This document shows, piece by piece, positions 24,745 through 51,522 of a stretch of 53,461 bases of DNA (its first letter is position 1; the number at the start of each line of letters is the position of its first letter). The notes beneath the pieces were generated by a model. It ran no database searches. It was not told where the DNA came from and saw nothing but the letters and a program-made list of their open reading frames with translations. Location of the stretch: UHGV virus genome UHGV-0032033. One strand, 5' to 3'. The translations under genes were made by a program, and so were the position numbers. This stretch comes from a virus.

Positions 24745-24921
24745 ATGTCTTTTGATGATTACCAATGGCATGACGACTATGAACGAGAAAGCGTCATGCG
24801 TGCAATGTGCAATGTATGCAGCACGAAGAAAGGAGGCTGTAACGAGTGCAACGAATGCTTAGATCATTGGCTAAGGGCCGGACACGCCGAAAGGCTGAAC
24901 GAAACAGAGAATCAAAAATAA
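24745..24921 (+). CDS. small Cys-rich (zinc-ribbon-like) protein (58 aa)
   Basis: RBS aaaggagag; MSFDDYQWHDDYERESVMRAMCNVCSTKKGGCNECNECLDHW...; below track cut-off. Confidence 0.4.
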   Translation: MSFDDYQWHDDYERESVMRAMCNVCSTKKGGCNECNECLDHWLRAGHAERLNETENQK

Positions 24922-24935
24922 TCGGGGTGGTTTTT

Positions 24936-25541
24936 ATGCAAAACCCTAAAAAACCCATAAGACGCCGTTGCAAATGCTGCGGCGTTTTTTTTGAGCCTAA
25001 ATATCACAATCAAACGTGGTGCAGCGATGAATGTCTGGAAGAACTGAAGTTTGATCAGCTATGTCGCGACCGTGAGAAGGCTATGAAGGCTATGGAGCGG
25101 AAGAAACGCCGTGATAGCCAGCGTGAAGAACGCAACCGGAAGCGTAAACAGTTAAATCCGCGTAGTTATTGGTTAAAGCAGGCGCAAGCGGTATTTAATG
25201 CATATATCCGCGAACGCGACGCGGGTCAGCCGTGTATATCTTGCGGGACTTATTACGGCGATCAGTGTTCCTGGGATGCCGGGCACTATAGAACGGTTGC
25301 TGCCGCAGGGCACCTTCGTTTTAACGAAGATAACTGCCATCGCCAATGCAGGCACTGCAACCAGACATTAGACGGCAACATAGCAGCTTATCGCCCTGCA
25401 CTGATTAGAAAAATTGGCCTCGCCAGGGTGGAAGCGCTGGAGAACAACAACGATACGCATAAATGGACGATCGAAGAATGTAAAGAGATTATAAAAATCT
25501 ATCAGGCGAAATTGGACGCCTTAAGGAGAAAGGCAGCATGA
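24936..25541 (+). CDS. ninG: NinG/Rap-like recombination protein
   Basis: 201 aa from internal Met; Cys-rich clusters (RRCKCCGVFFEPKYHNQTWCSDEC; CISCGTYYGDQC; CHRQCRHCN); precedes rusA as in lambda nin region. Confidence 0.7.
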   Translation: MQNPKKPIRRRCKCCGVFFEPKYHNQTWCSDECLEELKFDQLCRDREKAMKAMERKKRRDSQREERNRKRKQLNPRSYWLKQAQAVFNAYIRERDAGQPCISCGTYYGDQCSWDAGHYRTVAAAGHLRFNEDNCHRQCRHCNQTLDGNIAAYRPALIRKIGLARVEALENNNDTHKWTIEECKEIIKIYQAKLDALRRKAA

Positions 25542-25945
25542 ATGAATATTCTTTTAGCCTGCCTTACCCGCCATCGAATAACCGCTATTACCGACATTCG
25601 CGCGGTTTTCACTATATCAGCAAAGTGGGGAAGGAATACCGGGAACAAGTAAAAGACATCATCGAATTATTAAATTTAGACATTAACCTATCTTGCCGAC
25701 TGGCAATCGCCATTTATGCCGCGCCGCCGGATAACCGGATCAGAGATCTGGATAATATCCCAAAATGCCTTTTTGACAGCCTTACTTACGCCGGATTCTG
25801 GACTGACGACGGACAAATCGACTCAATAAAAATTGTACGCTGCCGGAAGGTAAAAGGCGGGCGATTGTTTATCAAGGTACGCGAAAGCGGCGACCTGCTA
25901 CCGGATATTGACGAATACGCGACCAATATGTGGAGTGAGCAATGA
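25538..25945 (+). CDS. rusA: RusA-family Holliday junction resolvase
   Basis: LPYPPSNNRYYRHSRG, DLDNIPKCLFDSLTYAGFWTDDGQIDSIKIVR motifs. Confidence 0.85.
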   Translation: MNEYSFSLPYPPSNNRYYRHSRGFHYISKVGKEYREQVKDIIELLNLDINLSCRLAIAIYAAPPDNRIRDLDNIPKCLFDSLTYAGFWTDDGQIDSIKIVRCRKVKGGRLFIKVRESGDLLPDIDEYATNMWSEQ

Positions 25946-26124
25946 AAAACGAAGTTAAAGATCTGCAAATAGATATTCAGCGCGACGAACGTGATTTAGA
26001 GACGGTCCGACAAATCCAGGCTTTCCACATGAGCGAATTACTTGCGCTGAAAGAGTTTGAAAGAAAGCTGGTGCAATCCATTTCTGATCGTAAATGCCTT
26101 ATTGCTCGTTACGGGGGGAAATAA
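25942..26124 (+). CDS. hypothetical protein (60 aa)
   Basis: Track ORF, coupled. Confidence 0.4.
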   Translation: MKNEVKDLQIDIQRDERDLETVRQIQAFHMSELLALKEFERKLVQSISDRKCLIARYGGK

Positions 26125-26846
26125 TGAATTTAGAATCCATTCTGAAATTCCACTTCCCAAAATCACCGCGATTATCAGACGAAAGCCGGGGAACATCACC
26201 TGATGCACTTAATACTACTGATGCGCTTACCGCCGCTGGTATGGCGCAATCGCGCGTAGAGCTTGGTTATAGCGCTTTTCTAGGGAAGATGGAACTATCA
26301 CAAGCCGAAAAACACAGGGCCGTAGTTTTGCTTACAGAGCGTTTAAGAGCTATGGCAAAAGATTACGAATACGTCATGGAACTGGAGGAGAGCCAGCGCA
26401 ATGATTTTATTATTCTTGTTGCCGTTTTCGCGTTTCGGGATTATTGCCAAAGCGCCGCGACGGAAAAAACTTGTATGGAGTGCGGCGGATATAAATTTAC
26501 GTTTGACGAATACGGAGAAAAACACCTTTGCAAAAAATGCAAGGGGCACGGGAAAGTTCGCAATCATTGTAAACAATGCAAGGGGCGCGGCGAGATACCG
26601 GATAAAACAGCCAGCAATGCGGCAGAAATGCCAGTCTTCAAAACGTGCCAGCACTGTGGCGGGCGCGGGTACTCGCGTTTCCCGGTAGATCTCGTCCGGC
26701 AGGCTGTTAACCAGCTTGTTTTCCCGGTAAGCCGATCAACATGGTGGAAGAAATACAGGGTTTTCTATGAGGACGCCATAGCGGAGCTATTCAAAGAAGA
26801 AGCCCGCGCGGAAAGCGAAATCAAGCGAGTGACACGGGGTGAATAA
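26124..26846 (+). CDS. Cys-rich zinc-finger protein, candidate late antiterminator (Q-like)
   Basis: Position after ninG-rusA as for lambda Q; repeated CxxCxGxG motifs (CMECGGYKF, CKKCKGHGK, CKQCKGRGE, CQHCGGRGY); assignment tentative. Confidence 0.45.
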   Translation: MNLESILKFHFPKSPRLSDESRGTSPDALNTTDALTAAGMAQSRVELGYSAFLGKMELSQAEKHRAVVLLTERLRAMAKDYEYVMELEESQRNDFIILVAVFAFRDYCQSAATEKTCMECGGYKFTFDEYGEKHLCKKCKGHGKVRNHCKQCKGRGEIPDKTASNAAEMPVFKTCQHCGGRGYSRFPVDLVRQAVNQLVFPVSRSTWWKKYRVFYEDAIAELFKEEARAESEIKRVTRGE

Positions 26847-27046
26847 TGGATAAGTTAGAAATAAACGATCAGTTTGCCGTTATCTTATTTGAAGATAAAA
26901 CAGGCGGCGCATGGTGTAAGAAAGTCACTGGTGCGGAAGCGCGTTTAATATTGGGTATGGCGAGCGCGTTAAACGAGGGCGAATTGCCCGCCATCCCTGT
27001 TAAGCCTGTCAAAATTTACAAGCGGGGTGACGATGATGAAGCCTAA
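26846..27046 (+). CDS. hypothetical protein (66 aa)
   Basis: Track ORF, start abuts upstream stop. Confidence 0.45.
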   Translation: MDKLEINDQFAVILFEDKTGGAWCKKVTGAEARLILGMASALNEGELPAIPVKPVKIYKRGDDDEA

Positions 27047-27308
27047 ATTAAAAGAACATATTTACCGCCAGTTGATTAACGAGCTTGCTGATACGGCCCG
27101 ATATTACGCCGGAACACAACAGCTACGCGGGCGGATATCTTCGGTTGTTAACCGCTATATTGATGCCGGATGTCATCGCAAAGGTGAAATTACGATGGAC
27201 GAGGCCATCAAACGCCGTTCGGCTGAATGGTCAGTGAGTAATACCGGATTAACCGGATACATCGAAGGCTATAACGACTGTTTACAGGATCATAATGATG
27301 GCAAGTAA
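27027..27308 (+). CDS. hypothetical protein (start uncertain, probably ATG a few codons in)
   Basis: Track ORF begins at a GTG; in-frame ATGs 2-3 codons downstream with ggggtga SD. Confidence 0.45.
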   Translation: MTMMKPKLKEHIYRQLINELADTARYYAGTQQLRGRISSVVNRYIDAGCHRKGEITMDEAIKRRSAEWSVSNTGLTGYIEGYNDCLQDHNDGK

Positions 27309-27606
27309 AGACCTACATTTGAACCTGAAAGGGGAATATTTTCACGCCATCCGGGCGGGAAAGAAGGTGGAGGAATACCGGCTTTACAATGACTATTGGC
27401 GGAAACGCCTGGAAGGTCGGGAATATGAACGCCTGATAATCAAGCTTGGTTATCCAGCCAGCCACGAAACACACCGGATCATAAACCTGCCTTATTTCGG
27501 GTACGAAGTAAAAACTATCACGCATCCATTATTCGGCCCTGATCCTGTTAAGGTATTCGCAATTAAATGTGATGTGAATTGGATGTTAAGGTGGGGTGAG
27601 CAATGA
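27295..27606 (+). CDS. ASCH-domain-like protein
   Basis: N-terminal LNLKGEYFHAIRAGKKVEEYR resembles ASCH/PUA-like beta-barrel signature. Confidence 0.45.
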   Translation: MMASKDLHLNLKGEYFHAIRAGKKVEEYRLYNDYWRKRLEGREYERLIIKLGYPASHETHRIINLPYFGYEVKTITHPLFGPDPVKVFAIKCDVNWMLRWGEQ

Positions 27607-27818
27607 AAAAAGCTGGCCTATCAATTAGCCGTGTATTGTGCGGTGACGAAAACGAGATCCGCATAGAAATTAAATTTAGCACAGGTAAAGAGATAATCCT
27701 TTACACGACACCTGAAAACCTGGCGCTGGTGCTTACTGGTAAATCTGAAACGCCGTGCGACGTCCGCTTACGCAATATTGAGATCAGGGAAATAGGAGAG
27801 GCGAAAAATGAAAAGTAA
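27603..27818 (+). CDS. hypothetical protein (71 aa)
   Basis: Track ORF, coupled. Confidence 0.45.
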   Translation: MKKAGLSISRVLCGDENEIRIEIKFSTGKEIILYTTPENLALVLTGKSETPCDVRLRNIEIREIGEAKNEK

Positions 27819-28020
27819 CCGTAAACGCCTGGTAAGAGCATATGATAAAGCGTTAAAGGCTTTTGATGATCTGCGACACAATAAGCGCCAGCGCCGCAAA
27901 TGGGCGCGAATGCTTGTTGGTGAATGGCATAACGAAGATTTCTTTCTGGAAGCGCGGCACATGACGCAAGAAGACGCGGACCAATTAGCTTACGATAATG
28001 TTTATTATATGATGTGGTGA
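27808..28020 (+). CDS. hypothetical protein (70 aa)
   Basis: Track ORF, coupled. Confidence 0.45.
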   Translation: MKSNRKRLVRAYDKALKAFDDLRHNKRQRRKWARMLVGEWHNEDFFLEARHMTQEDADQLAYDNVYYMMW

Positions 28021-28024
28021 CAAT

Positions 28025-28390
28025 ATGCAAATAATCCTTGATTACCTTTGCCACGCTGCAAATACAATTTTTGGCATGTATCAGCAACAATTCCTCAAAG
28101 AATGGGACGACATGCTGAATGATATCCTCGATAAAGGATTAATAATGGAGGTTGACGAGCTTACAATCAAATTTAATTATGAGGGTGAAATTTATCTAAT
28201 TTGGGTCGGGAATAGATGGTATTCATACGGTCATATTTATTCAATTGGCGATAAATACATTAAACGAAGCCAGGAATTCAGACCGCGCTTCCGAACAATG
28301 CGCCGCCTGCATGATCTGCATATGAAGTTATTCGAAGATCAGGAAGCACGGGAATTATTCAAAATTTACGGGGATATATCATGGAGCTAA
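28025..28390 (+). CDS. hypothetical protein (121 aa)
   Basis: Track ORF. Confidence 0.5.
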   Translation: MQIILDYLCHAANTIFGMYQQQFLKEWDDMLNDILDKGLIMEVDELTIKFNYEGEIYLIWVGNRWYSYGHIYSIGDKYIKRSQEFRPRFRTMRRLHDLHMKLFEDQEARELFKIYGDISWS

Positions 28391-28611
28391 AAATATGGCA
28401 GGCTATCGACGTGGTTGATAACGAATTATCTATGTTTGCCACTGACGGAAAGCGCGTGGTGATCGCCACATGGACGCGCAACCATGATGATATTACTTTT
28501 CGTCGCAAGGCGGCGGAGTGGCTTTTCTCTGATGGCGGCTACACGATGAACATCGCACAGCTTGCCAGAATGAAGGATGAAAAGCTGGTAGACAGCTACA
28601 CAACTGCATAA
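28381..28611 (+). CDS. hypothetical protein (76 aa)
   Basis: Track ORF, coupled. Confidence 0.45.
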   Translation: MELKIWQAIDVVDNELSMFATDGKRVVIATWTRNHDDITFRRKAAEWLFSDGGYTMNIAQLARMKDEKLVDSYTTA

Positions 28612-28621
28612 CGGGGTAAAT

Positions 28622-28855
28622 ATGCGTATTTATGAACACAAGCGGGATAAAACCCGCTTTTTTGTTCGTGCTGGCGTGGCGTACCAGTATCACGAATGCG
28701 GATACATTGAAGCGCTTGCTTACGATCTGGATTTCGAACAAGAAAAGGAATGGTTCGATTTCAAGATTTACCGGAAGCGCAAGCCAACGCGCGACGAGCG
28801 ACACGCTATCCGGGACTTTTTAATCAGCATAGACCGCTGGGAGACAGAGGAATGA
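28622..28855 (+). CDS. hypothetical protein (77 aa)
   Basis: Track ORF. Confidence 0.45.
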   Translation: MRIYEHKRDKTRFFVRAGVAYQYHECGYIEALAYDLDFEQEKEWFDFKIYRKRKPTRDERHAIRDFLISIDRWETEE

Positions 28856-29079
28856 AAGTTAAATTCTTGCACGATCACGGCTACCCATCATTAAAACGCG
28901 TGGTAGGGGAAATGGTAGACGTTGTTCATTCTGATGATGTGACCTGCGTCGTTATGGGTAAAGACCTTATCGCTCACGGTGCTGATAAAAATTATATCAA
29001 TCCGGCGTGGTCGTATACGTTCAGCCTGGGCGACTTCGTGGGCGATAAGGGGCGCGGGCTGCAAGTAGTCGAGGGTTAA
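28852..29079 (+). CDS. hypothetical protein (75 aa)
   Basis: ATGA-coupled; RBS ggagacagagg. Confidence 0.45.
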   Translation: MKVKFLHDHGYPSLKRVVGEMVDVVHSDDVTCVVMGKDLIAHGADKNYINPAWSYTFSLGDFVGDKGRGLQVVEG

Positions 29080-29083
29080 TATT

Positions 29084-29299
29084 ATGGACGTTTACGAGGA
29101 TGTTTACCTGGCACCTTCATCTTATAGCTTTTATTTTCTGATAAATGGAAAGGCTTATAGATGCGATTCTGACGGGGTGAGAGAAGAAAAGCTGTTTTGC
29201 ACTAAAGGATACCTGGATGATTTGGTTTTTGCCGGGATATTTCGCAAACGTCCGGCTAACCTGGAAGAAGAAATGCTGATCGACGAGGTGTTAAAATGA
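29084..29299 (+). CDS. hypothetical protein (71 aa)
   Basis: Track ORF. Confidence 0.45.
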   Translation: MDVYEDVYLAPSSYSFYFLINGKAYRCDSDGVREEKLFCTKGYLDDLVFAGIFRKRPANLEEEMLIDEVLK

Positions 29300-29541
29300 A
29301 AGTGAATTATTTCAGGGCAAAAGACAAGGCAACAGGAAAGCGGGTGGCTATCCTGGTTAATGAAGCAAATTATATGTTTGTTCTCCAGCCGTGGTGCATA
29401 GCTGACTATAACGATGATTATCGCCGTCACGCTGCGCGGCGGGCGGTCGGGATGAAAGGCTGGCAGCCTCGCGACATGCTTAATTATTGCGACTGGAATC
29501 TGATAGCGAAATACACGGTCGATTATAAGGGGATTTTCTGA
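29296..29541 (+). CDS. hypothetical protein (81 aa)
   Basis: Track ORF, coupled. Confidence 0.45.
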   Translation: MKVNYFRAKDKATGKRVAILVNEANYMFVLQPWCIADYNDDYRRHAARRAVGMKGWQPRDMLNYCDWNLIAKYTVDYKGIF

Positions 29542-29747
29542 TGTATGTTCGATGCACTGAATCAAAATCATCATGCTTTGAGGTTGGCGGGATATATACC
29601 GTATCTCACCTGACTGGCGATGAAAATAACATACAATACATTAAAGACGATCACGGCGACGCGTGGCGCTATTGGGATTGTTACGCACGGGGACATGTTA
29701 CCAGTCAATTCGGCACGGAAGCGATCGCGCGATTCATTAAATGGTGA
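29541..29747 (+). CDS. small protein, paralog family A member 1
   Basis: VRCTESKSSCFEVGGIYTV ... KDDHGDAWRYW; shared pattern C.(Y/E)S....F..G.IY / DD.G..W(R/Y)(F/Y). Confidence 0.55.
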   Translation: MYVRCTESKSSCFEVGGIYTVSHLTGDENNIQYIKDDHGDAWRYWDCYARGHVTSQFGTEAIARFIKW

Positions 29748-29758
29748 GAGAGGCGTTT

Positions 29759-29971
29759 ATGCAAGTTAAATGCTCATATTCAAGCAATGACAGTGTTTTC
29801 ACGATTGGGCGAGTTTATGACGTTCACATCGTTTATGGCAATGAAAATCACACAATGAATAATTGCCTTGCCTTGATTGATAATCATGACGAAATATGGG
29901 TATTCAGGCCGAGTTATGAAGGCGGTGAAATATCCGGCGTAGGTTTTGCTGCCAGCTTCGAACGTTATTAA
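29759..29971 (+). CDS. small protein, paralog family A member 2
   Basis: RBS gagagagg; VKCSYSSNDSVFTIGRVYDV ... DNHDEIWVF. Confidence 0.55.
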   Translation: MQVKCSYSSNDSVFTIGRVYDVHIVYGNENHTMNNCLALIDNHDEIWVFRPSYEGGEISGVGFAASFERY

Positions 29972-29981
29972 AGGGGCAATC

Positions 29982-30239
29982 ATGAAACATTTATATTTTG
30001 AGGTATTGCAGACGCGCGACCGCAATATATTTGAAGAAGGGAAGATCTATTGCGGCGTTCAACTCCACGGCGCACCTGGCGGTAATGGTGCAATGGCGAT
30101 AACTGGCGATGATGATAAAGTTTATTTCGCTTATGTTAGCCATATCAATAACGCCGCTGGTTTGTATATTTATCGCATAGTCCATGATTTTCGTGAGATC
30201 GCGGAGTTTTGCGCCCGCGAAGGCAGTAAACCGGAATAA
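29982..30239 (+). CDS. small protein, probable divergent family A member 3
   Basis: RBS aaagggg; FEEGKIYCGV ... ITGDDDKVYFAYV. Confidence 0.45.
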   Translation: MKHLYFEVLQTRDRNIFEEGKIYCGVQLHGAPGGNGAMAITGDDDKVYFAYVSHINNAAGLYIYRIVHDFREIAEFCAREGSKPE

Positions 30240-30249
30240 GTGAGGTGTT

Positions 30250-30486
30250 ATGAATCGGAAACATAGATACCAGTGCACATACTCACGATGCAGCGCGTTT
30301 TTTAAGAATGGCAAGATCTACGAGGTTGGCGCAGCATTGGTTGACGAAAAGGATCAGGAATATATTCACGCCATTACTGACGACCAGGGCCAGTTATGGC
30401 GCTTTTATAAAATGGGGTGTGGCACGGCGCTTGTTTATGCGCGTGCTGGTGGTGCTTTTGCTGCGTTTTCGTGTGTAGGGGTATGA
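30250..30486 (+). CDS. small protein, paralog family A member 4
   Basis: YQCTYSRCSAFFKNGKIYEV ... TDDQGQLWRFY. Confidence 0.55.
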   Translation: MNRKHRYQCTYSRCSAFFKNGKIYEVGAALVDEKDQEYIHAITDDQGQLWRFYKMGCGTALVYARAGGAFAAFSCVGV

Positions 30487-30707
30487 AAATGATTTTAACG
30501 TGTAACGAGTCGGAATTAGGCTGTTTTGAGGAAGGCGCACAGTATACGGCTGAAAAACCGATGGGATTGTCGCCTAAGTTGCCGTTTATCGTCGTGACTG
30601 ACACTTACGGGCATTTATGGTATGCGGAACCGCGCCGGGGGATTGGTCGTTATGTTGTCCGTAGTTCGGACGGGATGATGATGGTTACTCTCACAGAAGA
30701 AACATAA
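30483..30707 (+). CDS. small protein, paralog family A member 5
   Basis: RBS agggg; LTCNESELGCFEEGAQYTA ... TDTYGHLWYA. Confidence 0.55.
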   Translation: MKMILTCNESELGCFEEGAQYTAEKPMGLSPKLPFIVVTDTYGHLWYAEPRRGIGRYVVRSSDGMMMVTLTEET

Positions 30708-30804
30708 TGTGATCTGCATCACGAGGTATACAAAATGGCATTGTTTTGGCAGTGCCATTTTGTTATAAAGAGGCTGAAGAGAGAACGATACGGAGGGTAG
30801 AAAA

Positions 30805-31077
30805 ATGAAACGCTGGATTAACGAAGAAACAGAAGCCCGCTTCAATGCCATTTGGGATCTGATTGAAAAAGAGGACGGCGTTTCTAGTCCCTACCTGAAC
30901 AATCTTGAGTTCCACTATGTAGAAGCGATGAACGCAGAGCATGACCACGAAGGAGGTGCTGATGAATTCGCCAAAAAATACGGCTTCGATGATGCAAACC
31001 ATATGATTAACAACGTGGTGATGCAGGCAGAGGAAGACTACGAATACAAATCACTTGAATTCGCACGCATGGCATAA
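30805..31077 (+). CDS. hypothetical acidic protein (90 aa)
   Basis: Track ORF with RBS ggaggg. Confidence 0.5.
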   Translation: MKRWINEETEARFNAIWDLIEKEDGVSSPYLNNLEFHYVEAMNAEHDHEGGADEFAKKYGFDDANHMINNVVMQAEEDYEYKSLEFARMA

Positions 31078-31087
31078 GGGGGAAACC

Positions 31088-31228
31088 ATGAACGCTAACG
31101 CTAAATATCCGGCCTGGGTTTTCGAACTATACGCCCGCTACTTTGACGCATTAGCACCAGGTGAAGAAGCATTAAGCATTGACGAATACGCGGAGTGCTT
31201 AGGATTTAGAGGAGGAGAAGAAGAATAA
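31088..31228 (+). CDS. hypothetical small protein (46 aa)
   Basis: RBS ggggga; MNANAKYPAWVFELYARYFDALAPGEEALSIDEYAECLGFRGGEEE; below track cut-off. Confidence 0.35.
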   Translation: MNANAKYPAWVFELYARYFDALAPGEEALSIDEYAECLGFRGGEEE

Positions 31229-31267
31229 ACACGGGGCCGGATGGCCCCATCAAACGGAGTAGAAATT

Positions 31268-31522
31268 ATGGTTGTGATCAGACTATGGCGCGGAGTCAGT
31301 AGGCTTGATGGCACATACAGCCGCGTAATTGAGGATGTTAATAATGGTCGGTTTTTTGAACTGGCATACAGTGAGAAAAGAGAGAGTGAATACCTGAACG
31401 AATCTACACCTATGTGGTGCAAAGTGGCGGGCCTTACTTCACTTTTGCGTCGCGGGTTTAGTACAGACTATAACACCTTAATTGACGCCGAACTGGTGGC
31501 TACTCTTTACGAAGCAGAATGA
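31268..31522 (+). CDS. small protein, paralog family B member 1 (84 aa)
   Basis: RBS ggag; IRLWRGVSRLDGTYSRVIEDVNNGRFFELAY...LLRRGF...ELVATLYEAE. Confidence 0.55.
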   Translation: MVVIRLWRGVSRLDGTYSRVIEDVNNGRFFELAYSEKRESEYLNESTPMWCKVAGLTSLLRRGFSTDYNTLIDAELVATLYEAE

Positions 31523-31551
31523 GGAATCAAATAATATTAAATAGGTGTGAT

Positions 31552-31806
31552 ATGGAAATAATAAAACTGTGGCGCGGCAATAGTAAGGCTGATGGTGAGT
31601 TTTGCCGCGTCGTTCAATTCGTCAATTATGGTAGGTTTTACGAGCTACCTTATAACAAAAGGAAGGGTGATTTCTATTTAAGCGAATCAATCCCGGTGCG
31701 CAGAAAAATGAAAGCGCTTAGAGGATTATTGCGAAGTGGTTTTTATTCTTGCCCTAACCCATTAAACAATCCTGAATTGGTGGCTGTTTTTTACGAAGGA
31801 GAATGA
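31552..31806 (+). CDS. small protein, paralog family B member 2 (84 aa)
   Basis: RBS aggtg; IKLWRGNSKADGEFCRVVQFVNYGRFYELPY...LLRSGF...ELVAVFYEGE; same length as member 1. Confidence 0.55.
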   Translation: MEIIKLWRGNSKADGEFCRVVQFVNYGRFYELPYNKRKGDFYLSESIPVRRKMKALRGLLRSGFYSCPNPLNNPELVAVFYEGE

Positions 31807-32132
31807 AAATGACTAAATTTATCAGCGTTAAAGTTTTCCGTGGTACTTTACCGAACGAAGAAGGATTAGGACAATTTGCCAGGCAACCTGGTGCATGTTT
31901 CCGTGTAGCCACTGAAGACGATGCGCATGTTAAATGCTTCCACGTATCGGAACCGCCTTTTAATGCAGACCATCTTGAAGACCCGGATAGAATTAAAAGC
32001 CTAGTTTCTGCCTATCTGATGTTCCAGGGTATCGCTGATATGGAAGTGGAATTGCTTGGCGCTGAACTGGTGGCAGAATACAAAATTACTGAAGCAGAAA
32101 GCGGAGAATCAAAAATTGAGCGCATCAAATAA
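31803..32132 (+). CDS. small protein, divergent family B member 3
   Basis: VKVFRGTLPNEEGLGQFARQ ... GAELVAEYKITEAE. Confidence 0.45.
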   Translation: MKMTKFISVKVFRGTLPNEEGLGQFARQPGACFRVATEDDAHVKCFHVSEPPFNADHLEDPDRIKSLVSAYLMFQGIADMEVELLGAELVAEYKITEAESGESKIERIK

Positions 32133-32367
32133 ACCTTACAAAATCCGTTGTAAAGGTGAGTACCCTGGCTTTACGACTGGTTGCGAATACCTGGGCCACA
32201 TTGGGTACGGCCCTTTCGGTGAGTTAGGGATGAACACGATGGACGACGACGGCGACAGCAGGACGCTTGATCTTGATTCTGATGATTTCGAATACATCCC
32301 GCCAGTCACTTACCGTGACGTCGATGATTTCCTGGCTGAACAAGAAGACGATGAAGAGGATGATTAA
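32056..32367 (+). CDS. acidic small protein with family-A-like N-terminal motif (start uncertain, possibly TTG ~32116)
   Basis: KIRCKGEYPGFTTGCEY ... MDDDGDSRT; C-terminal Asp/Glu-rich tail. Confidence 0.4.
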   Translation: MALNWWQNTKLLKQKAENQKLSASNKPYKIRCKGEYPGFTTGCEYLGHIGYGPFGELGMNTMDDDGDSRTLDLDSDDFEYIPPVTYRDVDDFLAEQEDDEEDD

Positions 32368-32369
32368 CT

Positions 32370-32510
32370 ATGGATGACGAATACGTTAACAATTTTATTG
32401 TTATGTTTCTTAGTGAAAACTGGCGCATGTTTGAACATTATTGTTTTGAGCGCGGGGAAAATGCTGAAGAAATATATCAATATTTAGGCGGGGAGAAAGA
32501 GGATGATTGA
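32370..32510 (+). CDS. hypothetical small protein (46 aa)
   Basis: MDDEYVNNFIVMFLSENWRMFEHYCFERGENAEEIYQYLGGEKEDD; stop overlaps next ATG. Confidence 0.35.
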   Translation: MDDEYVNNFIVMFLSENWRMFEHYCFERGENAEEIYQYLGGEKEDD

Positions 32511-32703
32511 ATGCCTTATCATTGCTGCGTTTCTCCTTTATATCGCTGGCGCTATCCTGATGTCTTGTTTTATCAGAAGTAACGATCTCAATCGTGGTGG
32601 CCTTGAGGTTCCTTTCTGGCCTGTAGCGGTGTTTATCGCTTTCGTCGATGCTACGCGCACGCAGATCAAAAGAGCTATTAAGGAGCGTAAAAATGGGAAA
32701 TAG
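32503..32703 (+). CDS. small membrane protein (66 aa)
   Basis: Two hydrophobic segments (IIAAFLLYIAGAILMSCFI; FWPVAVFIAFV). Confidence 0.45.
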   Translation: MIECLIIAAFLLYIAGAILMSCFIRSNDLNRGGLEVPFWPVAVFIAFVDATRTQIKRAIKERKNGK

Positions 32704-32917
32704 CGACCATCAATATGACGGCGTTTATCAGTCATTGGTGTCACGCGCTTATTATCGCCTTGAAGGTGAACACGTAATGATGCGATTACGCCAGTTTGAT
32801 CCGTGGCATGAAACGATTCTACCTGTGACAGCGAAAGAAGTTATCACGATGTTTAATCACGGGCACTGGCGCAAGGTTGGTGATATTAAATTCAGGATGT
32901 TTAAAGAGGGTAATTAA
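32693..32917 (+). CDS. hypothetical protein (74 aa)
   Basis: Internal Met of track ORF 32648..32917. Confidence 0.45.
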   Translation: MGNSDHQYDGVYQSLVSRAYYRLEGEHVMMRLRQFDPWHETILPVTAKEVITMFNHGHWRKVGDIKFRMFKEGN

Positions 32918-33085
32918 ATGATCGAAGATGGTATCTATGTGCATAACTTATTTGATATTGCTTACTTGCTGAAAGAGGAAAAGGTTTTTGTTATGTCGAG
33001 TGAGCATCCTTTCTGGACTGGCGTAAACATGGATCGTGAACAGATGCAAATATTGCTTGATAATGGCCTGATAAAGAAGAAATAG
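32918..33085 (+). CDS. hypothetical small protein (55 aa)
   Basis: ATG abuts previous stop; below track cut-off. Confidence 0.35.
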   Translation: MIEDGIYVHNLFDIAYLLKEEKVFVMSSEHPFWTGVNMDREQMQILLDNGLIKKK

Positions 33086-33152
33086 AAGCCATAATCGCGC
33101 ATAAAAAACAAATAGATTAAAATACTTCCTAACAATGCGAAATTGTAATTAC

Positions 33153-33179
33153 CCGGCCCAGCGCCGGGTTTTTGCTTTG
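33153..33179 (+). terminator. hairpin terminator immediately upstream of lysis cassette (tR'-like)
   Basis: cccggc-ccagc-gccggg followed by TTTTTGCTTTG, ~15 nt before holin RBS. Confidence 0.6.
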
Positions 33180-33394: not shown

Positions 33395-33886
33395 ATGATT
33401 AGCCAATCGCTGAAGAACAAGATTATTGCTGCGGCGGCTGGTGGGGCGATCGCTATTGCGGCTGTGATGGTTAAACCATTAGAAGGCGTGGAGTACGATC
33501 CTTATCGTGATGTTATCGGTGTATGGACTGTGTGTTATGGTCACACCGGAAAGGACATTATGCTGGGTAAGACTTACACGCAATCAGAATGCGATGCTTT
33601 GTTAAACAAAGATCTCCACAAAACCGCAAAAGCGATTGACCCATATATTAAAGTCGAAATATCAGATTTTACCCGCGCGGCGCTTTATTCATTCGCCTAT
33701 AACGTAGGCGCTACCAACTTCAAAACATCAACCTTATTGAAGCTACTCAATGACGGCAAGAAATCGGAGGCATGTGCACAGCTTAAACGCTGGATATATG
33801 CTGGCGGCAAGCCGTGGCAAGGGTTAATAAACCGCCGTGATGTTGAATATGCCGTTTGCGAATGGGGTGAAACATGGAAAAGGTGA
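33395..33886 (+). CDS. SAR endolysin (lysozyme, phage 21 R-like)
   Basis: N-terminal Gly/Ala-rich SAR segment [17 protein letters not shown]; catalytic region [41 protein letters not shown] close to R21. Confidence 0.9.
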
Positions 33887-34344
33887 AGACGTTAATTATC
33901 GCCGTTGTTGTTTGCATTATTGCCGGGCTGACCGCCGTAACATGTTATTACCAGGGTGAAGCAGCGAGATTGCAGGAAGAGGTCACGACCACGCAAGGCG
34001 CACTGAAAACAGCAAGTAACACTATTCAGCAGATGAAGGAGCGAAACGCAGAGCTATCAAAACTTGATAAGAGGTATCACGATGAAATTAAAGCTATCAG
34101 ATCTGACATTGCCGATCTGCGCACTGGCATTGATAGCGGCGCTATCAGGTTGCACGTCAACGCCGAACCAGTGCGATTACTCGACAATACGGGAACCGCC
34201 AGCCGCATTGATGGAGCCACCTGTAGACTCACTCCCGACGCTGAATCGGCTTATCTATCCCTCAGAGAACAACTAAAAGAGAAAGATGCGAAGATCGCCG
34301 GACTTCAGAGCTATATCAAAACGCAGTGCTTACGCAAAAAATAA
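33874..34344 (+). CDS. Rz: i-spanin (Rz)
   Basis: N-terminal TM helix, coiled-coil periplasmic domain; overlaps endolysin 3' end. Confidence 0.8.
34082..34276 (+). CDS. Rz1: o-spanin (Rz1), embedded in Rz in +1 frame
   Basis: RBS aagagg; lipoprotein signal with lipobox LSGC, Pro-rich mature part. Confidence 0.75.
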   Translation: MKLKLSDLTLPICALALIAALSGCTSTPNQCDYSTIREPPAALMEPPVDSLPTLNRLIYPSENN

Positions 34345-47112: not shown

Positions 47113-47414
47113 AATTAACCCCTGTAATTATTCTGATTTGCTAAATGCTTCCTTTAACTTAGTTATACACGCATATTGTTTATTTTTTAAGTGCTTTTAA
47201 CATTTCTTCGATAAGGTCCGCATAGCGTTCATATTCGTTGGGACGGTAGTTTACGTTTCTCATTTTCTTATCCTCTTTCACTTCCTCCGGGACATCCGGC
47301 CTTCCTGCATCTCTTCTATCTTTCTCTACATCATCTATACAAAACGGCATCGTTAAAATAAAGACATTTTGTATAAAATAGATACATAGATCACATTTTG
47401 CATGAGGTTAAATC

Positions 47415-49757
47415 ATGGCTACCAGTGTAGGCACAATTTATTACGAAGTTGACGCAAAAACAGGACAACTTCTTGTAGCACAACGACAGGCAGACCAAGC
47501 CTTTGACCGTATAGAGCGCGGTGCTAAACAGGCCGATCGCCAGGTAAACACACTGAAAACATCAATCAAAGCACTGACCAGGGTTATCCATCTGCTAATT
47601 GCTGCCGAGGCCGTTAGACAGTTTATGGAAATGGCAGAGCAGGCCAAAATGCTACGCGTCAAAATCAAAATGCTGACAGGCGACGCGGAATCTGCCGGGC
47701 GGGTTTTTGATGGTCTGAAAGAAATATCCAGGGAGACGGGGCAGAGCCTGAAAGATACTGGCGAATTATGGCAAGGCCTGGCTATCTCACTAAAAAACAC
47801 CTCCGCTACGGAAGGGCAATTGCTTAACCTGGTTGGCACCATTCAGAAGATGGGCGCGTTAGGGGGCGCGTCAGCAGAGCAAATGTCAAACTCTATGCGC
47901 CAGTTCCGACAGTCTATTGACGGCGGCGTACTTCGCGCAGAAGAATTCAACAGCTTGCTTGAAAATACGCCGACCATCGTACAAACAATGGCCCGCAAGA
48001 TGGGATTATCAATGGGCCAGTTCCGCGCCGAAATGCTGGACGGCAAGATCACAGCGGAAAGGATGGTTAACGCAATCCAGGCGGCTACGCAGGAAACAAA
48101 CGAGCAGTTCGCACAGTTGCCGCGCACATCCGGCATGGCTATCAATGAACTAAAAGTCGAGGTAATGGGTCTGGTGGAACAACTGGACGATCTTTTCGGT
48201 GTATCAGATGGCGTAGTCTCAGCTATCGACTTGATCACAAAAGGAGTTAATGGGTTAGGTGAGGGCGCTAAATTCGCTAAAACCTGCTTTGATACGCTCA
48301 AAACGGCTGGTAGCGAATTCATCGACATGTTTGATGATGTGGCTGTGAAGGCTGGCGAGGTGGCAGAGAAGATCATCGCAATGGTGACGCCAATCAAGGC
48401 GCTAATGGATGGCTATAAATGGATGAAGGAGGTAGTAGGAGAGCAAACCGACGAATATAACAGCAACTACGAGAAGAAATACGGGAAGACCGTTGGCAAG
48501 GTCATGCAACTACAGGATGATCTGACCGCAGCAATCCAGGCTACAGAAGAAGCAAGGAAAAATGAACAGAATGCTGCCAATGACGGAGCGATTACCGGAT
48601 TCGACAAGCCAGTAGACAAGCCGAAAAAACAAAAAAAAGAGAAGAAATCGGAAGCCGATCGGCTTGGTGATAAAGGCATTAGCGTTTCTGACCAGTACAA
48701 TAAAGACGCAGCAGCTATGCGCAAAGCATTAGAGAACGGCAAGGCCATTGATGCTGCATTCGCCCAGGGTAAAATCACACTCCTTGAGTACCGCGCCGCG
48801 CAAAAAGGGATCGGCAAAGAACTGAAAGAAGAATTAGCGCAGATCCCGGCAGATGAACTGCGTGATAAATGGTCGCAAATAGTTAGCCCGATGGACCAGC
48901 TAAAAGGAGAGGTTGACCCCATCCAGCAGGCGCAAAATGAATGGGCCATCCGTAAGCAAATGTTGTTAGATCTGAACGCATCAGAGACACAAATCAGGGC
49001 CGAACAACTACAGCATGAACGGACCATTACTAACCTTAAGTGGGAGCAATGGCAGGCGCAAAGCGATACCAACGGCCTTATAGGTGATTGCGTGAATGGC
49101 CTCAAAGGCGGTATGAGCAATGCGCTTGTCGGCCTGCTTAACGGTACTCAATCATTGAGCGATGTTTTTGCTAACTTAGGGAGCAATATACTAGGGAACA
49201 TCGGCAACAGGCTTTCTGACATAGCAGCCGACTGGATAGCAGATCAGATCATGATGGAGACGCAAAGCAAGGCAACGCAGGCCAGCACAACGGCAAGCGC
49301 GGTAGCCGCTCAGGGTAGCATCGCTGCGGCAGCGGCCCCGGCAGCGGCGGCGACAGCGGCATCAACTGGCGGTAGCTGGGCGGCGGCTGGCTCGGCGGCG
49401 CTTACTGCGATCATGTCGCTGGCAACATCCATTTTCGGCGGCGGGCGCTTTAATGGTGGTAGCGTAATTGGTGGCAATATGTACCGCGTCGGGGAACATA
49501 ACAGGCCGGAGCTATTCCAGACGTCTAACGGCAACCAATACATGATCCCCGGCGAGAATGGCAGGGTTATCCCGGGGCGTGATATTGGCGGCGGCGGCGG
49601 TATCAGTATGCCTGTTTACATCGACATTCAAACCACAAACGGATTTAGTGACGAAGACACACGCAGACTTGAACAGACAATGGAACGTGTAGCCATGAAA
49701 ATGATAACAAGGGAATCGCAAAGACCTGGCGGGATGTTGCAACCGCGCCGCAAATAA
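47415..49757 (+). CDS. tail tape measure protein
   Basis: 780 aa, alpha-helical N-terminal two thirds, Gly/Ala-rich C-terminal region; position between chaperone and M. Confidence 0.85.
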   Translation: MATSVGTIYYEVDAKTGQLLVAQRQADQAFDRIERGAKQADRQVNTLKTSIKALTRVIHLLIAAEAVRQFMEMAEQAKMLRVKIKMLTGDAESAGRVFDGLKEISRETGQSLKDTGELWQGLAISLKNTSATEGQLLNLVGTIQKMGALGGASAEQMSNSMRQFRQSIDGGVLRAEEFNSLLENTPTIVQTMARKMGLSMGQFRAEMLDGKITAERMVNAIQAATQETNEQFAQLPRTSGMAINELKVEVMGLVEQLDDLFGVSDGVVSAIDLITKGVNGLGEGAKFAKTCFDTLKTAGSEFIDMFDDVAVKAGEVAEKIIAMVTPIKALMDGYKWMKEVVGEQTDEYNSNYEKKYGKTVGKVMQLQDDLTAAIQATEEARKNEQNAANDGAITGFDKPVDKPKKQKKEKKSEADRLGDKGISVSDQYNKDAAAMRKALENGKAIDAAFAQGKITLLEYRAAQKGIGKELKEELAQIPADELRDKWSQIVSPMDQLKGEVDPIQQAQNEWAIRKQMLLDLNASETQIRAEQLQHERTITNLKWEQWQAQSDTNGLIGDCVNGLKGGMSNALVGLLNGTQSLSDVFANLGSNILGNIGNRLSDIAADWIADQIMMETQSKATQASTTASAVAAQGSIAAAAAPAAAATAASTGGSWAAAGSAALTAIMSLATSIFGGGRFNGGSVIGGNMYRVGEHNRPELFQTSNGNQYMIPGENGRVIPGRDIGGGGGISMPVYIDIQTTNGFSDEDTRRLEQTMERVAMKMITRESQRPGGMLQPRRK

Positions 49758-51336: not shown

Positions 51337-51522
51337 ATGTATGCTATTTGTGTAGTTGACCGCACGGGCGCTTTTACATTATTTGACGACTATGAAATCA
51401 AAGATCTTACCGTAAAGGCTGACAATGGCGAGATCTGGTATCTTCATGACGTTGGTGACGGGTATGTTGGGTGCAGGTCGAGAGAGGGAAGGGAAGTTTT
51501 ATTTTTGGTTGATAGCGTATAA
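51337..51522 (+). CDS. hypothetical small protein (61 aa) inserted after M
   Basis: RBS ggag; MYAICVVDRTGAFTLFDDYEIKDLTVKADNGEIWYLHDVGDG... Confidence 0.4.
   Translation: MYAICVVDRTGAFTLFDDYEIKDLTVKADNGEIWYLHDVGDGYVGCRSREGREVLFLVDSV

Follow-up and report, generated by a model that had tools for sequence, protein, structure and literature searches.

The best described counterpart of the small proteins considered here is Gp54 of Escherichia phage Bas11, a non-essential protein of 66 aa whose function is unknown. Gp54 binds the pseudo-zinc-finger antitoxin domain of CapRelSJ46, which leads to activation; upon binding, the Gp54 barrel partly unfolds and a hybrid sheet is formed with the target (PMC11578894). 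Gp54 of Bas11 is the only Gp54 documented to activate CapRelSJ46, its close homologues being unable to trigger it (PMC11578894), and no native function for Gp54 was found in the later literature. In 2024, Gp54 was a structural orphan, with a rare barrel topology and no known relatives beyond its own narrow family. The locus studied here belongs to a temperate Escherichia coli phage of the mEp021 (mEpimmI) group, in which the regulatory cluster is the variable part of the genomes (PMC11893012). The array genes described below are not discussed in the paper on this group.

The window, i.e., the whole stretch of 53,461 nt that was analysed, resembles MagusPhagus, mEp044, mEp010, mEp554, mEp013, and mEp021 between positions 28000 and 33500, with about 85% identity and in a patchy manner. 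Anything resembling the array was present in 23 of the 5,426 complete E. coli genomes, the top match being 94% identical. The array is located in the middle of a run of small genes extending from the Q antiterminator to the lysis cassette, with the following landmarks:

24846-25541, NinG
25538-25945, RusA
26124-26846, + strand, Q-type antitermination protein (PF03589, E=2.7e-29, together with a DnaJ-type zinc finger)
26846-33085, run of about 25 tightly packed small genes (~6.2 kb) between Q and the holin
29296-29541, + strand, conserved gene bordering the array slot on its upstream side; every relative has it, even the array-less mEp021
from 33194, holin, HP1-type
from 33395, lysozyme

The ORF at 29084-29299, two genes upstream of the array, is homologous to gp41 of mEp021.

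The first-pass annotation had described five consecutive and translationally coupled ORFs as diverged paralogues, with a sixth ORF carrying the N-terminal motif further downstream. The ORFs in question are all present on the + strand, and we refer to the first five as A1 to A5:

29541-29747, + strand, A1, 68 aa, core member of the MYVRC type, whose ATG overlaps the stop codon of the upstream gene (TGATG)
29759-29971, + strand, A2, 70 aa, core member of the MQVKC type, with an alternative upstream ATG at 29741
29982-30239, + strand, A3, 85 aa, probable divergent member devoid of the N-terminal Cys and of the Trp
30250-30486, + strand, A4, 78 aa, core member, the only basic one (pI 8.75)
30483-30707, + strand, A5, 74 aa, core member, whose ATG overlaps the A4 stop codon (ATGA)

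The likely starts of A2 (29759), A3 (29982), and A5 (30483) are shifted slightly relative to the mechanically delimited ORFs. For A2, we preferred position 29759 because the orthologues of related phages begin with MQVKC and because a Shine-Dalgarno sequence precedes it. Such a sequence was found before every one of the five genes. The coupling previously proposed for the whole array is literal at the two junctions with overlapping codons (upstream gene/A1 and A4/A5), the remaining three junctions exhibiting gaps of 10-11 nt at which coupling is plausible. Apart from A4, the encoded proteins are mostly acidic (pI 4.8-5.8). No signal peptide was seen by inspection in family A, and on the same basis these are cytoplasmic proteins of about 8 kDa and 70 residues.

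The paralogy of A1, A2, A4, and A5 is supported by both pairwise and profile comparisons. Smith-Waterman alignments compared with 500 shuffles gave z-scores of 10.8 for A1-A2, 10.6 for A1-A4, 11.0 for A1-A5, and 7.2 for A2-A4, with none of the 500 shuffles reaching the observed score for any of these pairs, and a z-score of 3.2 for A4-A5. A core HMM built from these four proteins and iterated once against ORFs from all six frames, taken from the window and from related loci, retrieved the four core members together with at least 12 orthologues (E<1e-25). The four proteins share conserved C, S, F..G..Y, D, and W positions in addition to this significant pairwise and profile similarity, and they can be firmly regarded as paralogues from their sequences.

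The position of A3 is less secure. Its pairwise similarities are weak, the best one being with A4 (z=3.0, 500 shuffles). With the core HMM, A3 was the first non-core ORF of the window (E=0.002-0.003), the following ones having E>0.1. As a control, the + strand ORFs of the region from Q to the holin in 12 phages and prophages were grouped into 42 families, each of which was compared to the core profile with hhalign. The four core subfamilies had P-values below 1e-23. They were followed by the MESYF type, which is the first gene of the array in MagusPhagus and in two prophages (P=1.7e-4, nearly full length), by the A3 group (P=6.6e-4, or 2.4e-4 with a 13-member A3 alignment), and by two intermediate families (P=0.006-0.009), all others having P-values of at least 0.06, which is about where the chance level begins among the 38 control families. 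The values for the MESYF type and A3 survive correction for 38 comparisons, and both were aligned in the F..G..Y / DD register. The codons for F-E-E-G-K-I-Y in A3 also match those of A4 at the DNA level. The AlphaFold2 (AF2) model of A3 is of low confidence (pLDDT 54), yet it exhibits six strands in the same order as A1; a fold search with this model was uninformative. The claim of five paralogues can thus be maintained for four of the genes, A3 being a probable divergent member of the family.

Protein identity between paralogues is only 22-31%, and DNA similarity is restricted to motif-sized stretches in register (A3/A4 and A1/A2), which marks the duplications as old. The duplication and diversification proposed in the first-pass annotation is supported by this pattern.

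The putative sixth member had been delimited as 32056-32367. In relatives, conservation of the frame does not begin before “KLSASNK...” and a GGAG precedes this point, so that a shorter gene is probable; this version agrees with the PGAP annotations and with PHROG 25234:

32116-32367, + strand, A6, 83 aa from a TTG start, with the Shine-Dalgarno sequence GGAG at 32103; PHROG 25234

Its N-terminal half is in the family register (FTTGCEY ... DDDGD), with an hhalign P-value of 0.004 over 29 columns that is not significant after correction, whereas an acidic tail without relation to the family (pI 4.05, charge -17) makes up its C-terminal half. No match to A6 was obtained with the core HMM at E<1, and none of its pairwise local alignments with A1-A5 was significant against 500 shuffles. 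A composite motif defined post hoc, C-x(6-9)-F-x2-G-x2-Y-x(8-30)-D-[DN]-x-G-[DEQH], was found only in A1, A4, and A6 among the 735 ORFs of the window and in none of 200 shuffles. Over 15 nt, the codons that specify DDHGD in A1 show 87% identity with those for DDDGD in A6. In prophage L013, a family gene occupying the first slot is naturally fused in frame to the A6 tail at the DDGD codons, the intervening DNA being deleted. We considered this fusion (protein P0047) as a possible proof of the ancestry of A6 but rejected it; identity at the crossover is limited to about 8-9 nt (GATGGCGA) at the DDGD codons, which shows recombination at a shared motif only. Full membership was also rejected, the resemblance being confined to the N-terminal half, and judging from the alignments A6 would be at most a half-member of family A.

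Database searches connected the array to clusters without annotation. A1 matched PHROG 31142 over its full length (E=2.9e-40), with weak matches for A4 (3.5e-6) and A2 (1.8e-4), and these three proteins also touch PHROG 4927. A3 and A5 matched neither of these two PHROGs, and A6 did not match 31142. Sequence searches in Pfam, PADLOC, and the PDB produced nothing usable, the best Pfam hit being DUF7244 with the N-terminus of A1 (E=0.13). Long repeat proteins match the core profile in up to 23 stretches, always through the “DD.G..W” hairpin. Homology with beta-propellers (NHL-, Reg_prop-, and sialidase-like blades) was rejected, this hairpin (profile positions ~30-68) being the only matching part; beta-propellers are made of repeated four-stranded blades, whereas the family A model is a single closed barrel.

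This model was obtained for A1 with AF2, without templates and from an alignment of 31 sequences, and is confident (pLDDT 90.4, pTM 0.74). It contains strands at residues 2-8, 18-23, 32-35, 41-47, 50-54, and 61-67, the first two strands being connected by a loop of nine residues. Family A is thus predicted to be a six-stranded small beta-barrel with a prominent beta1-beta2 loop, the fold of Gp54 (PDB 9AXB; Pfam PF25180, “Phage antiviral trigger protein Gp54”). The fold that could not be recognised in the first-pass annotation can now be named, on the basis of the model, as a Gp54-type barrel. The release of the structure 9AXB, in November 2024, is later than the assembly of the data on which AlphaFold2 was trained. 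The A1 model should therefore not be memorised, and the match should be independent.

We could not recover this relationship at the sequence level. By eye, Gp54 and family A share F-x-x-G before strand 2 and G-x-x-W in the hairpin of strands 3-4. Comparison of family A with 14 Gp54 homologues by hhalign gave a probability of 0.3% (P=0.23), and the family A HMM scored about 0 bits against Gp54 sequences. PF25180 (gathering score 27 bits), against which Gp54 itself scores 116 bits, did not match A1-A6 or 31 relatives even at E<=1. The link with Gp54 is thus at the fold level only; common ancestry is unproven, and convergence is possible in such a tiny barrel. A Foldseek search of the predicted viral structures of BFVD gave TM-scores of 0.7-0.86 for dozens of small proteins that are uncharacterised. 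T1-like and other coliphages account for most of these proteins, a single phage often encoding several, and some are multi-domain. In Bas11, the family HMM produced four marginal matches (E 0.006-0.06) among 724 ORFs. Taken together, the BFVD and Bas11 matches indicate a broad and multi-copy class of phage mini-barrels.

A profile search of 5.8 billion proteins recovered 70 matches, all from E. coli or uncultured Caudoviricetes and none with a Pfam domain. An exhaustive HMMER search added the distant small relatives P0075 and P0082 as well as P0093, which consists of two tandem domain copies. To compare copy numbers between related phages, as had been proposed earlier, we counted the family A genes in the same slot, after the homologue of the gene at 29296-29541:

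mEp021, no copy
mEp554, one copy
mEp013, two copies, one of them fused to another gene
mEp044, mEp010, and GF66.2, three copies each
Ecol_244, the same five copies as the phage studied here
MagusPhagus, 09-00049, and 2017C-4173W12, five copies each, marginal types counted
strain PAR, five copies, marginal types counted, the A2-type copy being frameshifted
L013, the fusion gene only

Gene order was constant, [MESYF or MFVKC type] - [A1 or MFARC type] - A2 - A3 - A4 - A5. Other in-frame fusions are present in databases, in which genes of the A4 type and MFARC type are joined to downstream genes (P0031, P0069, and P0085). The variation from zero to five copies among otherwise similar phages and the natural fusions indicate that the array is accessory and has been remodelled by deletion, in agreement with the published view that mEpimmI genomes vary in their regulatory cluster (PMC11893012). 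The array can be dispensed with, and its composition changes through gene loss and in-frame deletions.

The individual genes are under purifying selection, which we observed for all five gene types. Median dN/dS between orthologues was 0.24 for the A2 type, 0.20 for A1, 0.14 for A3, and 0.13 for both A4 and A5, with dS of 0.26-0.79. The earlier remark that the sequences are more diverged than the reading frames, if read as positive selection, was not borne out; no positive selection was seen overall among orthologues by dN/dS.

Several signals bear on the transcription of the array:

30730-30770, + strand, terminator-like hairpin with a 15-bp stem and a U-rich tail, directly 3' of the array
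33068-33095, + strand, sigma-70-like promoter site from a consensus scan
33151-33177, + strand, strong terminator located about 55 nt after the promoter-like site and followed by the holin

The 71-nt stretch at 30705-30775, which includes the 15-bp hairpin and a small 5-bp one, has a minimum free energy of -24.4 kcal/mol (z=-4.2), and none of 200 shuffles was as stable. Terminators are annotated at the position matching 30730-30770 in mEp044, mEp010, and mEp554. The elements at 33068-33177 look like a candidate late promoter followed by tR', a lambda-style pR'/tR' pair that would end the small-gene operon. In mEp021, TERM_5 is annotated at the position matching this second terminator, and t5 is among the experimentally demonstrated terminators of this phage (PMC11893012); from the numbering, we assumed that t5 and TERM_5 are the same element. 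At the other end of the run, the first small gene starts in overlap with the stop codon of Q, leaving no room for a late promoter directly after Q. This lack of room and the pR'/tR'-like pair before the holin both make it more likely that the array belongs to the early-right operon than to a late transcript. The array would then probably be transcribed as the distal part of this operon through antitermination by the N-like Gp17 rather than from a late promoter, as far as consensus scans can tell.

Family A may be viewed as a lineage-specific tandem expansion of a small cytoplasmic six-stranded barrel, in which C5, S8, F13, G16, Y19, D36, and W42 (A1 numbering) probably form the barrel core and tight turns. 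Outside these conserved positions, the sequence has diverged between paralogues. This combination of a conserved core with conserved turns and divergence elsewhere suggests that each paralogue most likely binds a different partner, in which case it would act as a stoichiometric binder during lytic growth. The partners would be host proteins, plausibly immunity proteins, by analogy with Gp54, which binds the sensor domain of CapRelSJ46 by strand addition. Since the sole characterised protein with the same fold binds a host protein, host-protein binding would be the most likely role, and we estimate at roughly 0.5 the probability that family A proteins are protein-binding accessory factors acting on the host. 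For all array members, no homology to a protein of known function was found in Pfam, PADLOC, or the PHROGs. This counts against such a role, as do the missing sequence similarity to Gp54 and the lack of overall positive selection among orthologues.

The array would then be an accessory set for host takeover or counter-defence. The counter-defence or host-targeting role suggested in the first-pass annotation is compatible with the evidence, the predicted fold matching that of the non-essential and host-immunity-binding Gp54. Counter-defence specifically appears possible but doubtful; the sole documented activity of Gp54 is to trigger a defence system and not to inhibit one, which counts against the analogy. 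One could go further and suppose that all Gp54-like mini-barrels, among them family A and the many T1-like phage proteins of this fold, belong to a single large and fast-diverging superfamily, the members of which bind host immune sensors by beta-strand addition. The array would in this case serve as an arsenal, each paralogue neutralising a different sensor or acting as its decoy, and the triggering of CapRel by Gp54 would be a counter-move of the host against one such inhibitor. We consider this extended scenario to be unlikely.

Small barrels can also suggest other activities. Family A proteins could be nucleic-acid-binding barrels (SH3-, Sm-, or OB-like) acting in the phage or the host as regulators of transcription, translation, or DNA transactions. 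We would give this possibility a low probability. SH3-like small beta-barrels have five strands whereas family A has six, and family A is much closer to Gp54. An association with the virion, either as a minor decoration or as proteins packaged and injected with the DNA, would be suggested by a few labels: mEp021 gp41, the homologue of 29084-29299, is annotated as “virion structural protein” in the GenBank record of that phage, the virion of which has been analysed by mass spectrometry to identify its proteins, one structural neighbour in BFVD is called “putative minor capsid protein,” and P0082, a distant relative, has a weak match to a PHROG with the label “virion structural protein.” However, these neighbour labels are unverified automatic names, the array is far from the morphogenesis cluster, and mEp021 forms virions even though family A is entirely missing from it, copies varying from 0 to 5 in the group, and a virion role is improbable. 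A modulation of lysis, for instance through inhibitors of phage or host lysozyme resembling the PliC/PhiA beta-barrels, appears very improbable. The PliC/MliC inhibitors (3oe3, 4mir, and 7dpy) are larger, eight-stranded, and periplasmic, with 5-7% identity, whereas family A has no signal peptide; we rejected membership in this group, having found neither an export signal nor an eight-stranded barrel. Finally, the least probable explanation is that the similarity is a chance motif match or that the ORFs are decaying and non-functional remnants, as the marginal similarity of A3 and A6, the frameshift in one orthologue (L009), and the match of the “DD.G..W” hairpin with beta-propeller blades of unrelated large proteins might suggest, but the z-scores of up to 11, HMM E-values below 1e-25, and dN/dS values refute it for the four core members, and purifying selection on all types, a Shine-Dalgarno sequence for each gene, and the confident fold prediction also argue against it.

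Family A and the same-fold proteins of BFVD point to a widespread and multi-copy class of phage accessory proteins. If they act on host immunity, the array would be a natural set of variants for target mapping, and it would make the evolution of an immune sensor that recognises one of these proteins easier to understand. Otherwise, the locus would remain a clear-cut case of paralogue turnover in the flexible region of a newly described phage group.

Databases already contained the proteins themselves, as hypothetical proteins and as PHROGs without an assigned function. In the case of PHROGs 31142 and 4927, which are unannotated clusters, the descriptions mention neither paralogy, nor an array, nor a fold. 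What appears to be new is that paralogy is demonstrated, that the array and its turnover are described, and that a link to Gp54 of Bas11 is made at the level of the fold. The fold of the former structural orphan is predicted to recur in a sequence-unrelated family of temperate coliphages, as an array of four to six genes that are freely gained and lost between related phages. Whereas the virulent T1-like phage Bas11 has just one gene for Gp54, family A is present as four to five tandem paralogues in a temperate phage of the mEp021 group.

In-frame fusion genes occur naturally in a prophage (L013, 3501-3737), in mEp013 (mEp013_60, L006 4557-4853) and among database proteins (P0047, P0031, P0069, and P0085). 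In one example, a slot-1 gene (a family A gene) was joined to the acidic tail of A6, with the junction at the DDGD codons. An A4-type gene was joined to the C-terminus of the homologue of gene 31803-32132 in another. In a third, an MFARC-type gene carries the C-terminus of membrane protein 32503-32703. The fusion genes are made by deletions between array genes and genes downstream, and the array region is a deletion hotspot using short shared motifs.

Downstream of the array, two more small genes stand in tandem and are paralogous to each other (Smith-Waterman z=38); their proteins have LWRG.S..DG...RV...VN.GRF.EL.Y in common:

31241-31522, first gene of the pair, 93 aa
31519-31806, second gene of the pair, 95 aa

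The next gene, 31803-32132, had only a C-terminal AELVA motif in common with the pair, which was not significant. At the DNA level, a 19-nt repeat joins 31482-31500 and 32056-32074.

The following features lie around or within the small-gene run between the Q antiterminator and the holin:

26124-26846, Q-type antiterminator combining PF03589 and a DnaJ-type CXXCXGXG zinc-finger region in one protein
29084-29299, small ORF encoding a homologue of mEp021 gp41, two genes ahead of A1
30730-30770, stable 15-bp hairpin and U-rich tail directly after A5
33068-33177, promoter-like site CTGATA-16-CATAAT, then a strong GC-rich terminator, directly upstream of the HP1-type holin

The last of these resembles the pairing of late promoter and tR' in lambda, in which case the whole small-gene run would sit upstream of the late operon. 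The stop codon of the Q-type gene overlaps the start of the next gene, so a late promoter would have no intergenic room immediately behind Q. The 71-nt stretch containing the hairpin (30705-30775) had an MFE of -24.4 kcal/mol (z=-4.2), and terminators are annotated at the equivalent position in mEp044, mEp010, and mEp554. Since gp41 is labelled "virion structural protein" in GenBank, virions may package a small protein encoded in the regulatory-region operon, the product of 29084-29299.

Possible family A-like genes were also seen off the array. In mEp044 (mEp044_46, L003 607-843) and prophage GF66.2 (L012 1026-1346), the interval between RusA and Q holds a marginal relative (VVKCTQSSVDFFTEGKKY...DDADAWRL, E about 0.002-0.015); the window has an unrelated helical ORF (25942-26124) at this position. 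Among the tail genes of the window we noted one further candidate:

51337-51522, small ORF, MYAICVVDRTGAFTLFDDYEIKDLTVKADNGEIWYL..., hairpin motif similar to family A

Its relationship to family A was not significant (E about 0.2-0.4). In Bas11, four small genes among 724 ORFs matched the family A profile marginally (E 0.006-0.06), all in the MKvKC...F.aG..Y...De.G style of the family:

37578-37943 (-), marginal match
33759-33929 (+), marginal match
47216-47653 (+), marginal match
45147-45338 (+), marginal match

These matches suggest that a wider superfamily has several members dispersed in T1-like phages besides Gp54 (the Bas11 protein whose fold family A is predicted to share).
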